64,000 nt of DNA from Candidatus Wolfebacteria bacterium RIFCSPLOWO2_01_FULL_45_19 (GCA_001793855.1 MGIR01000001.1:8645-72644); one strand, 5' to 3'. Shown: positions 56,033-56,213, counted from the first letter of the stretch. The notes: a model not told the origin generated them from the sequence alone. Numbers and translations: made by a program.

Positions 56033-56060
56033 TGACAAACTTTATAATAAGAGTATAATG
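56033..56060 (+). promoter_or_regulatory. consensus sigma70 promoter (TTGACA-16-TATAAT)
   Basis: Seen directly in the sequence. Confidence 0.6.
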
Positions 56061-56066
56061 CATAAG

Positions 56067-56213
56067 GAGGGTTCGATCAGGCGAGGCCAACCACGAGCGG
56101 TGACTGGCTCCACTGCTTAATGGGCGCCTGGTTGCATTGGGGAGACAACAGGGGGACCAGGAACTTCTGTTGTCGCCAAATTAGTAAGCGCTTGCTCGGC
56201 AAGCGCTTTTTTT
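56067..56213 (+). ncRNA. ~147 nt structured RNA with its own promoter and intrinsic terminator (candidate sRNA, or L4-type attenuator leader for rplC-operon)
   Basis: Hairpin GACAACAG...CTGTTGTC, helix CAGGCG/CGCCTG, and terminator AAGCGCTTGCTCGGCAAGCGCTTTTTTT. Confidence 0.4.

Follow-up and report, generated by a model that had tools for sequence, protein, structure and literature searches.

What occupies the space between the ribosomal protein genes rpsJ (S10) and rplC (uL3) in a groundwater bacterium of the candidate phyla radiation (CPR)? We addressed this question in a stretch of 64,000 nucleotides (nt; 64 kb), hereafter the window, from the Parcubacteria genome Candidatus Wolfebacteria bacterium RIFCSPLOWO2_01_FULL_45_19 (GCA_001793855.1, MGIR01000001.1:8645-72644). 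Its L3 and S10 are identical to the proteins named for GW2011_GWB1_45_9 and Wolfebacteria RIFCSPLOWO2_01_FULL_45_19. An original prediction, made on the window itself, had described a promoter, a structured RNA and a terminator inserted between the two genes, and had left a choice between a relocated L4-responsive attenuator leader and an independent small RNA (sRNA). The two alternatives turn out to describe one each of two neighbouring elements. With somewhat more confidence than doubt, we read positions 56032-56213 as a stand-alone, lineage-specific gene whose predicted transcript is a structured non-coding RNA of ~148 nt; the segment that follows, 56255-56304, is modelled as a terminator/antiterminator switch of the classical kind, placed immediately in front of the rplC start codon. 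Features lie on the forward strand unless marked (-).

A proposed small RNA gene with its own promoter and terminator

The unit opens with a promoter, P1 (56032-56059), that agrees with the sigma-70 consensus at 12 of 12 positions: TTGACA (56032-56037), a 16-nt spacer and TATAAT (56054-56059). Perfect sites of this kind (TTGACA-N15-19-TATAAT) number two in the 64 kb, against 0.09 expected from shuffled sequences, and GGGTTGACAAA of P1 is kept in the closest sampled relative, a JGI metagenome locus referred to as L171. The predicted transcript (56066-56213, ~148 nt) has a GC content of 0.56, compared with 0.35-0.40 in the flanking spacer; its start, placed from the -10 element, falls at ~56065-56067 and its end within the U-run 56207-56213. 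The intrinsic terminator (56186-56213) combines a 10-bp GC-rich stem (56186-56195/56199-56208) with a 3-nt loop and U7, at -15.3 kcal/mol. The original prediction had recognized all of these parts: the GC-rich structured transcript, put at ~147 nt, the textbook terminator with its U7, and the perfect promoter, for which the sequence and the 16-nt spacer were right and the coordinates (56033-56060) one base off. A sigma-70-type promoter and an intrinsic terminator that bound a unit of 50-300 nt are the hallmark of a stand-alone sRNA gene. An equivalent pair bounds the unit in L171, where the terminator is of unrelated sequence and stands at the equivalent place.

Upstream, a terminator behind rpsJ (55996-56025; A5, a 9-bp stem at 56000-56008/56013-56021 and a U-run; -17.0 kcal/mol) appears to insulate the unit against read-through from tuf-rpsJ, and a terminator of different sequence occupies the same place after rpsJ in L171 (-25.6 kcal/mol). 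Downstream lies a promoter-like sequence, P2 (56220-56248), recognized by direct reading as TTGCGT (56220-56225), 17 nt and TAAACT (56243-56248). The proposed cassette order is therefore rpsJ terminator, consensus promoter P1, two hairpins, strong terminator and re-start promoter P2. Direct inspection of the folds of the window and L171 revealed no conserved alternative pairing or antiterminator opposing the 5' arm of the sRNA terminator. We favour a stand-alone sRNA because terminators would insulate it on both sides, because an ancestral promoter seems to have been retained downstream, because its strong terminator comes without a conserved antiterminator and because it is dispensable in sister lineages. 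The independent sRNA of the original prediction, with a promoter and terminator of its own, P2 behind it and no counterpart in six relatives whose locus is otherwise intact, is in our view the better supported of the two proposals for this segment. Such an RNA would be a discrete, abundant transcript acting in trans, its two conserved, mutually complementary loops contacting an RNA or protein partner, and transcription of the rplC operon would restart at P2 under the leader at 56255-56304.

Fold, loops and coding potential

Folding of the sRNA core, with the terminator excluded (56066-56181), gives -47.3 kcal/mol (z = -2.5; 4 of 200 shuffles are as good), and the L171 core, also without its terminator, reaches z = -3.2. 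The opposite strand of the window core folds more weakly (z = -1.6). In the minimum free energy (MFE) fold the first hairpin, H1 (56070-56138), is long and irregular, and its apical 8-bp stem (56095-56102/56111-56118) carries a conserved 8-nt loop, ACUGGCUC (56103-56110). The second hairpin, H2 (56144-56174), has an 11-bp stem and the conserved loop GACCAGGAA (56155-56163). The corresponding loops of L171 are CCUGGCUA in H1 (consensus nCUGGCUn) and AACCAGGAUAA in H2 (consensus RACCAGGAWA). The H1 and H2 loops are partly complementary to each other, at -9.1 kcal/mol in the window and L171 alike.

The RNA is non-coding and lies outside the known RNA families. At the gathering score, Rfam 15 returned only the 16S rRNA and tRNAs from the whole window; at E<=10, region 55950-56350 gave only terminator look-alikes, the best of which reached 20.7 bits where its family requires 50, and so did the L171 locus. 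The families covered include SRP, 6S, tmRNA, 5S, RNase P, Y RNA, riboswitches and ribosomal protein leaders. ARAGORN detected no tmRNA or tRNA at the sRNA locus. These scans, the first of which the original prediction had proposed, agree with its impression by eye that no obvious signal recognition particle (SRP), 6S or tmRNA signature is present. Only open reading frames (ORFs) of 20-35 amino acids (aa) occur within the sRNA, none of them conserved. A small protein was rejected as an explanation, as the ORFs over the conserved H2 do not share a frame between the window and L171. A sponge of the CsrB/RsmZ type was likewise rejected, with a single conserved loop GGA (in ACCAGGA) and a 5' AAGGAGG that is not conserved, and so was a riboswitch with a terminator platform, given that no conserved competing pairing exists and that close relatives have the operon without the element. 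Similarity of the sRNA to E. coli 23S, 16S and 5S rRNA stays at the level of shuffled sequences, with no sign of ribosomal protein mimicry, and its loops have no conserved complementary site in the tuf-rpsS mRNAs or the neighbouring leader of the window or L171.

The AAGGAGG near the sRNA 5' end (56064-56070), which had been singled out as notable, is present in the window and absent from the L171 homologue; in one same-species scaffold, which contains Ns, it reads AAGGAGT. Because the motif is not conserved it carries no weight and lends no support to a function.

Distribution among relatives

How widely is the sRNA shared? The closest relatives were gathered through protein searches with L3 and S10. 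Contigs of the window species come from Rifle-type groundwater samples, SRR1658462 and JGI 3300025030 among them. Within the species, ten contigs from different samples have an identical spacer, and one exceptional scaffold differs by two substitutions, one of them that of AAGGAGG to AAGGAGT. Among the closest relatives only L171 has the sRNA; its S10 is 95% and its L3 79% identical to that of the window. The order of elements in L171 is rpsJ terminator, promoter, long H1, H2 with a small extra hairpin, terminator, second promoter and leader. Between the two loci both terminators and most stem sequences are unrelated, and the loops are identical over 6-7 nt. RNAalifold identified 3 compensatory and 2 one-sided changes in the 8 pairs of the H1 apex, and 1 compensatory and 2 one-sided changes in the 7 pairs of H2, that is, 4 compensatory pairs from two sequences. 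This pattern is suggestive of selection on the structure, and not proof of it.

The sRNA is absent from six further close relatives (L172, L173, L174/L181, L176, L177 and L179; S10 about 90-94% identical where listed), in which the rpsJ stop codon is followed within ~15 nt by a conserved short leader of ~50 nt and then by rplC. A covariance model of the H1 apex and H2 (R1), run against 569 kb of relatives, recovered nothing beyond the window species and L171, and blastn and nhmmer revealed no similarity to the element in 80 GTDB representative loci retrieved with S10, among which the rpsJ-rplC distance varies widely. A metagenome scan with L3 yielded only distant relatives among the matches listed. 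Loose and strict pattern scans of viral contigs returned matches that are due to chance or cover H2 alone, in DNA that is GC-rich and probably coding, and blastn against phage and plasmid DNA gave no match to the element. Conservation at the rpsJ-rplC junction, which the original prediction had named as a check, is thus divided: the structure is kept in L171 and missing from the six other close relatives. On present sampling the sRNA appears restricted to a narrow Parcubacteria lineage comprising the window species and L171.

Possible origin of the cassette

The simplest history would place the sRNA cassette upstream of an older, ancestral leader. A block made up of the rpsJ terminator, P1, the sRNA and the sRNA terminator would have entered between rpsJ and the old promoter and leader in an ancestor shared by the window species and L171. 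The rpsJ-rplC spacer, which spans ~60 nt to 2.5 kb in relatives, is an insertion hotspot. In L172 (1237-1420) an insert of ~150 nt has 20-nt inverted repeats (CCCCCACACCTATCGAGGAT / ATCCTCAATAGGTGTGGGGG) and is followed by a duplicated rpsJ 3' end, which looks like an insertion of the MITE (miniature inverted-repeat transposable element) type into the rpsJ stop and promoter region. In the 796-nt spacer of L178 (848-1644), long inverted repeats accompany a 106-aa ORF that matches no Pfam family, and 0.9-2.5 kb separate rpsJ from rplC in the GTDB relatives L004, L008, L009, L020 and L046.

The heptamer ACTGGCT of the H1 loop (56104-56110) recurs at 55989-55996, 7 nt after the rpsJ stop codon, and is found at the equivalent ancestral position in L172 and L179 (GTAAACTGGCTTAAAC). 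The recurrence may be due to chance or may be a trace of the origin of the cassette.

A conserved leader in front of rplC

The second element, at 56255-56304, comprises a 5' box (GAGGAUAGCG, 56259-56268), an A-rich linker, a hairpin with arms 56275-56280/56290-56295 (span 56275-56295, loop CGGCUAUGC) and a U7 run (56298-56304), with 5 nt left between its end and the rplC ATG at 56310. A second hairpin with a U-run just before rplC (56268-56300) had been part of the original prediction. The box (GAGGAUAGCC) is able to pair with the loop and 3' arm of the terminator hairpin, the stretch GAGGAUAGC having GGCUAUGCCUC as its counterpart, and at minimum energy the window leader adopts the antiterminator form.

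A covariance model of this leader (R2) detected eleven distinct loci at E<=1.4e-5, all of them between rpsJ and rplC; apart from the window itself, 10 loci score 51-69 bits and L002 34 bits, and weaker matches occupy the same position in L085, L082, L084 and L004. The hairpin and U-run are present in all eleven loci, in which the 3' 42 nt fold at -13.9 to -24.3 kcal/mol. In every one of them the box has a potential partner in GGCUAnnCCUC, which extends from the top of the 5' arm across the loop into the 3' arm of the terminator hairpin, and the resulting box:hairpin duplex reaches -9 to -15 kcal/mol (11/11). Shuffled boxes do as well in at most 2% of cases for eight of the eleven. We used these per-sequence energies and dropped column-wise covariation counts, as the hairpin registers slip between sequences. 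The pairing is nevertheless kept through two-sided changes in L173 (AGGAC:GUCCU), L177 (GGGAAUGGCC:GGCUAUACCC) and L002 (UUAGCU:GGCUAG). The leader matches no Rfam model, and its best similarities to E. coli 23S (1135-1149) and 16S (612-629) rRNA are at chance level.

A conserved site before a ribosomal protein gene and mutually exclusive terminator and antiterminator pairings are the features of a ribosomal protein attenuator, and the leader has both. It probably controls the L3 operon, and we infer that it, and not the 148-nt RNA, is the real counterpart of such attenuators; the protein that it senses may be L4, L3 or another. The relocated L4-responsive attenuator of the original prediction accordingly does not suit the 148-nt RNA, to which it had been applied; its attenuator layout fits the leader, which is found in at least 11 Parcubacteria loci.

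P2 would place a transcription start at ~56255, just before the leader box. The P2 region of the window aligns with that of L171 (score 50; 0 of 300 shuffles) and with the ancestral promoter at the rpsJ 3' end of L179 (ATAGTATAAAC vs ATGGTGTAAAC). In relatives with a short spacer the leader promoter, TTGAAA...TGGTnTAAnnT, overlaps the end of rpsJ and spans its stop codon, and in P2 and this ancestral promoter alike the -10 element precedes the leader box by ~10 nt. P2 is thus far a putative promoter.

Comparison with known systems

The E. coli S10 leader responds to L4 and couples transcription termination with translation control (PMC3616713). Like the elements described here, it belongs to the S10/L3/L4 cluster and is a structured RNA whose hairpins precede a hairpin-U attenuator near a start codon; it differs in lying upstream of rpsJ, in having five hairpins and in being confined to Gammaproteobacteria. 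Both window elements lie downstream of rpsJ, which is joined to tuf, and we found no sequence or structure match between them and the E. coli leader. The 148-nt RNA is further set apart by having two hairpins and a terminator of its own, followed by a re-start promoter. The leader at 56255-56304 embodies the same principle as its E. coli counterpart in a different family: it is much smaller, follows rpsJ and is without an Rfam match.

A survey of ribosomal protein leaders reported an rplC-associated candidate (L4, upstream of rplC-rplD) only in Archaeoglobi and none for Parcubacteria or CPR (PMC7247131). That candidate, the L10 leader (RF00557) and the Firmicutes S10 leader are all cis-acting RNAs directly upstream of ribosomal protein operons (PMC7247131), and the window has its own rplJ leader of the L10 class behind an identical perfect promoter. 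The rplC leader stands out from the other ribosomal protein leaders as a simple switch of ~50 nt between a 5' box and a terminator.

Stand-alone bacterial sRNAs and antisense RNAs such as CopA, RNA I and the loop-seed sRNAs use hairpin loops as contacts. The 148-nt RNA shares with the CopA/RNA I type its own promoter, a Rho-independent terminator, a length of 100-200 nt and conserved loops on variable stems; unlike them, it belongs to a new family seen in only two species, and its targets are putative.

Alternative explanations for the small RNA

Could the 148-nt RNA instead be the beginning of a long two-stage leader? P1 would then be the main promoter of the rplC-rplD operon and the 148-nt RNA the 5' part of its leader, a possibility that we take seriously and still consider doubtful. 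It is equally tentative that H1 and H2 are recognized by some factor, such as a ribosomal protein (L4, if E. coli is the guide), and that the hairpin-U7 acts as a first attenuator in series with the conserved second one, or that P1 became necessary once a terminator had arisen after rpsJ. The rpsJ terminator is present in exactly the two species that have P1, so the downstream genes need a promoter, for which P1 is by far the best candidate and P2 looks weak. In E. coli, too, the S10 leader couples upstream hairpins to an attenuator hairpin (PMC3616713). The other perfect promoter of the window (TTGACA-N16-TATAAT) provides a local parallel: at 41001-41116 (+) it precedes a structured leader of ~75 nt that ends in U7 before rplJ-rplL, a layout like that of the 148-nt RNA. 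With 17.4 bits against the Rfam L10_leader model (gathering score 44), this is probably a divergent L10 leader. Several points weigh directly against the stand-alone sRNA. The only other perfect promoter drives a ribosomal protein leader, so that in this window a strong promoter, structure and a U-run equally mark a leader; P2 is weak-looking for an operon of at least ten ribosomal protein genes; where the transcript starts, whether it is discrete and whether P2 is active are all read from sequence features; covariation support is thin, with only two independent sequences; and the partner of the sRNA is putative. Set against the two-stage leader are the lack of a conserved antiterminator on direct inspection of the window and L171, an sRNA terminator that is strong by itself, and a P2 region homologous to the ancestral leader promoter and kept in both species. 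Close relatives moreover regulate the same operon without the 148-nt RNA, and comparison of this RNA with the 23S, 16S and 5S rRNA of E. coli gave no significant similarity of the kind that ribosomal protein mimicry would leave. On this balance we retain the stand-alone sRNA. That the promoter, hairpins and terminator are instead debris of an insertion into the hotspot spacer, yielding an RNA without a selected role, seems improbable to us. The range of spacer lengths, the MITE-like insert of L172, the ORF-bearing insert of L178 and the very narrow phyletic distribution of the element are what such a remnant would lead one to expect. The -35 element, both apical loops and helices with compensatory changes have, however, been kept while the flanking terminators diverged beyond recognition, the versions of the window and L171 both fold significantly better than shuffled sequences, and phage and plasmid DNA showed no similarity by blastn.

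A further alternative arises from the 16S rRNA. GGACCAGGA (56153-56161), in H2, is the perfect reverse complement of 9 nt at the 5' end of the window's own 16S rRNA, and would pair with UCCUGGUCC at -18.7 kcal/mol; the H2 loop and 3' arm of L171 are complementary to the same window 16S site at 18 of 21 positions if two gaps are allowed (-20.8 kcal/mol). This 5' end is atypical, UGAUCCUGGUCCAGG in place of the universal UGAUCCUGGCUCAGG; at 34790-34820 (-) it reads GAGGAUUUGAUCCUGGUCCAGGAUGAACG in place of the universal GAGUUUGAUCCUGGCUCAGGAUGAACG, and forms a perfect palindrome, AUCCUGG-U-CCAGGAU. The sRNA might be an antisense regulator or chaperone of precursor 16S rRNA (pre-16S), its H2 loop pairing with the nascent 5' end that contributes to helix 1 and the central pseudoknot, which we judge very unlikely. 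Equally unlikely is the corollary that this pairing modulates assembly or processing of the 30S subunit, with the H1 loop as an internal competitor. The perfect complement to an atypical 16S of the same organism, the display of the antisense bases in a conserved loop, the fit of the L171 loop and arm and the location of the gene within a ribosomal cluster all speak for it. Among 12,794 30-nt windows in the 64 kb, though, the 16S site comes only ~39th when scanned with the window loop and ~63rd with that of L171, so equally good sites arise by chance, and simple arithmetic gives ~1.6 perfect 9-mers expected by chance between the sRNA and a 3-kb 16S; a 10-mer was found elsewhere. The palindrome in this part of the 16S also makes it difficult to distinguish sense from antisense, and the H1 loop resembles the universal 16S sense sequence CCUGGCUC and not the 16S of this organism. 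If the antisense model holds, the H2 loop and 16S positions ~16-24 should change in step, which for L171 gives AUCCUGGUU, complementary to AACCAGGAU. In its most specific form, the sRNA as a trans partner of the precursor 16S 5' end, with GGACCAGGA of H2 pairing with UCCUGGUCC and the CCUGGCUC-like H1 loop as a built-in competitor, the proposal is more remote still. Only on such a reading would the RNA resemble the U3 small nucleolar RNA (snoRNA) or a bacterial pre-rRNA leader in being complementary to the strand destined for helix 1 and the central pseudoknot; the likeness rests on a 9-nt complementarity that is not statistically exceptional. We know of no U3-like trans-acting RNA on the 16S 5' end in bacteria.

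Peculiarities of the 16S rRNA gene

The 16S rRNA gene (31829-34818, -) has 2990 nt for a model of 1533 positions and therefore carries large insertions, one of which holds an ORF for a 254-aa LAGLIDADG endonuclease (32820-33584, -). Its 3' end, GGAUUAAUUAAAC, is without the CCUCC anti-Shine-Dalgarno (anti-SD) sequence, and no GGATCACCTCCTT-like anti-SD sequence occurs at or near the gene, in line with the earlier remark that the organism lacks one. The gene lies together with rpmE between a release-factor and a response-regulator gene (31341-36274). In L313 (JGI 3300009537), probably the L171 organism, the release-factor gene directly adjoins the response-regulator gene, so the location of the rRNA gene differs between these relatives.

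Gene context

The gene directly 5' of rpsJ is tuf (54451-55650), which overlaps rpsJ (55650-55982; Pfam Ribosomal_S10 in identical contigs) by one base at 55650; this overlap is consistent with the co-transcription of tuf and rpsJ that the original prediction had assumed. On the other side of the spacer, rplC (56310-56732) encodes a uL3 of 140 aa with a conserved N-terminus, an internally shortened form as described for CPR bacteria (PMC9297842). We favour the ATG at 56310 over the database start at 56337 (a protein of 131 aa) because the L3 N-terminus MKIKGIKLKM is conserved: translation from 56310 gives MKIKGIKLKMSQIW, which is kept in relatives and is typical of uL3.

A 62-aa ORF without a Pfam match (54129-54317, +) overlaps the fusA stop codon 5' of tuf, and gene calls of 59-62 aa occupy the equivalent place before tuf in same-species contigs and in L181/L182.

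Significance

To our knowledge, almost nothing has been established about regulatory RNAs in CPR bacteria, a setting of tiny genomes and reduced ribosomes and, in the present organism, of a 16S rRNA without an anti-SD sequence. The locus provides two concrete RNA elements in this setting: a candidate sRNA family and a compact leader of the L3-L4 operon shared by a set of Parcubacteria. The 148-nt RNA, which sits behind one of the two strongest promoter matches of the window and inside a ribosomal protein cluster, is best described as a new sRNA family in a CPR bacterium. The rplC leader is a new but mechanistically ordinary ribosomal protein attenuator leader, absent from Rfam. Should the sRNA touch rRNA maturation, the mechanism would be new; pairing with the 16S 5' end would amount to a bacterial analogue of assembly chaperoning of the U3 snoRNA type, encoded in a CPR ribosomal protein cluster. 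The leader offers a handle on the balance of ribosomal protein synthesis in CPR bacteria, and the sRNA, as we read it, indicates that lineage-specific RNA genes still arise in streamlined genomes.
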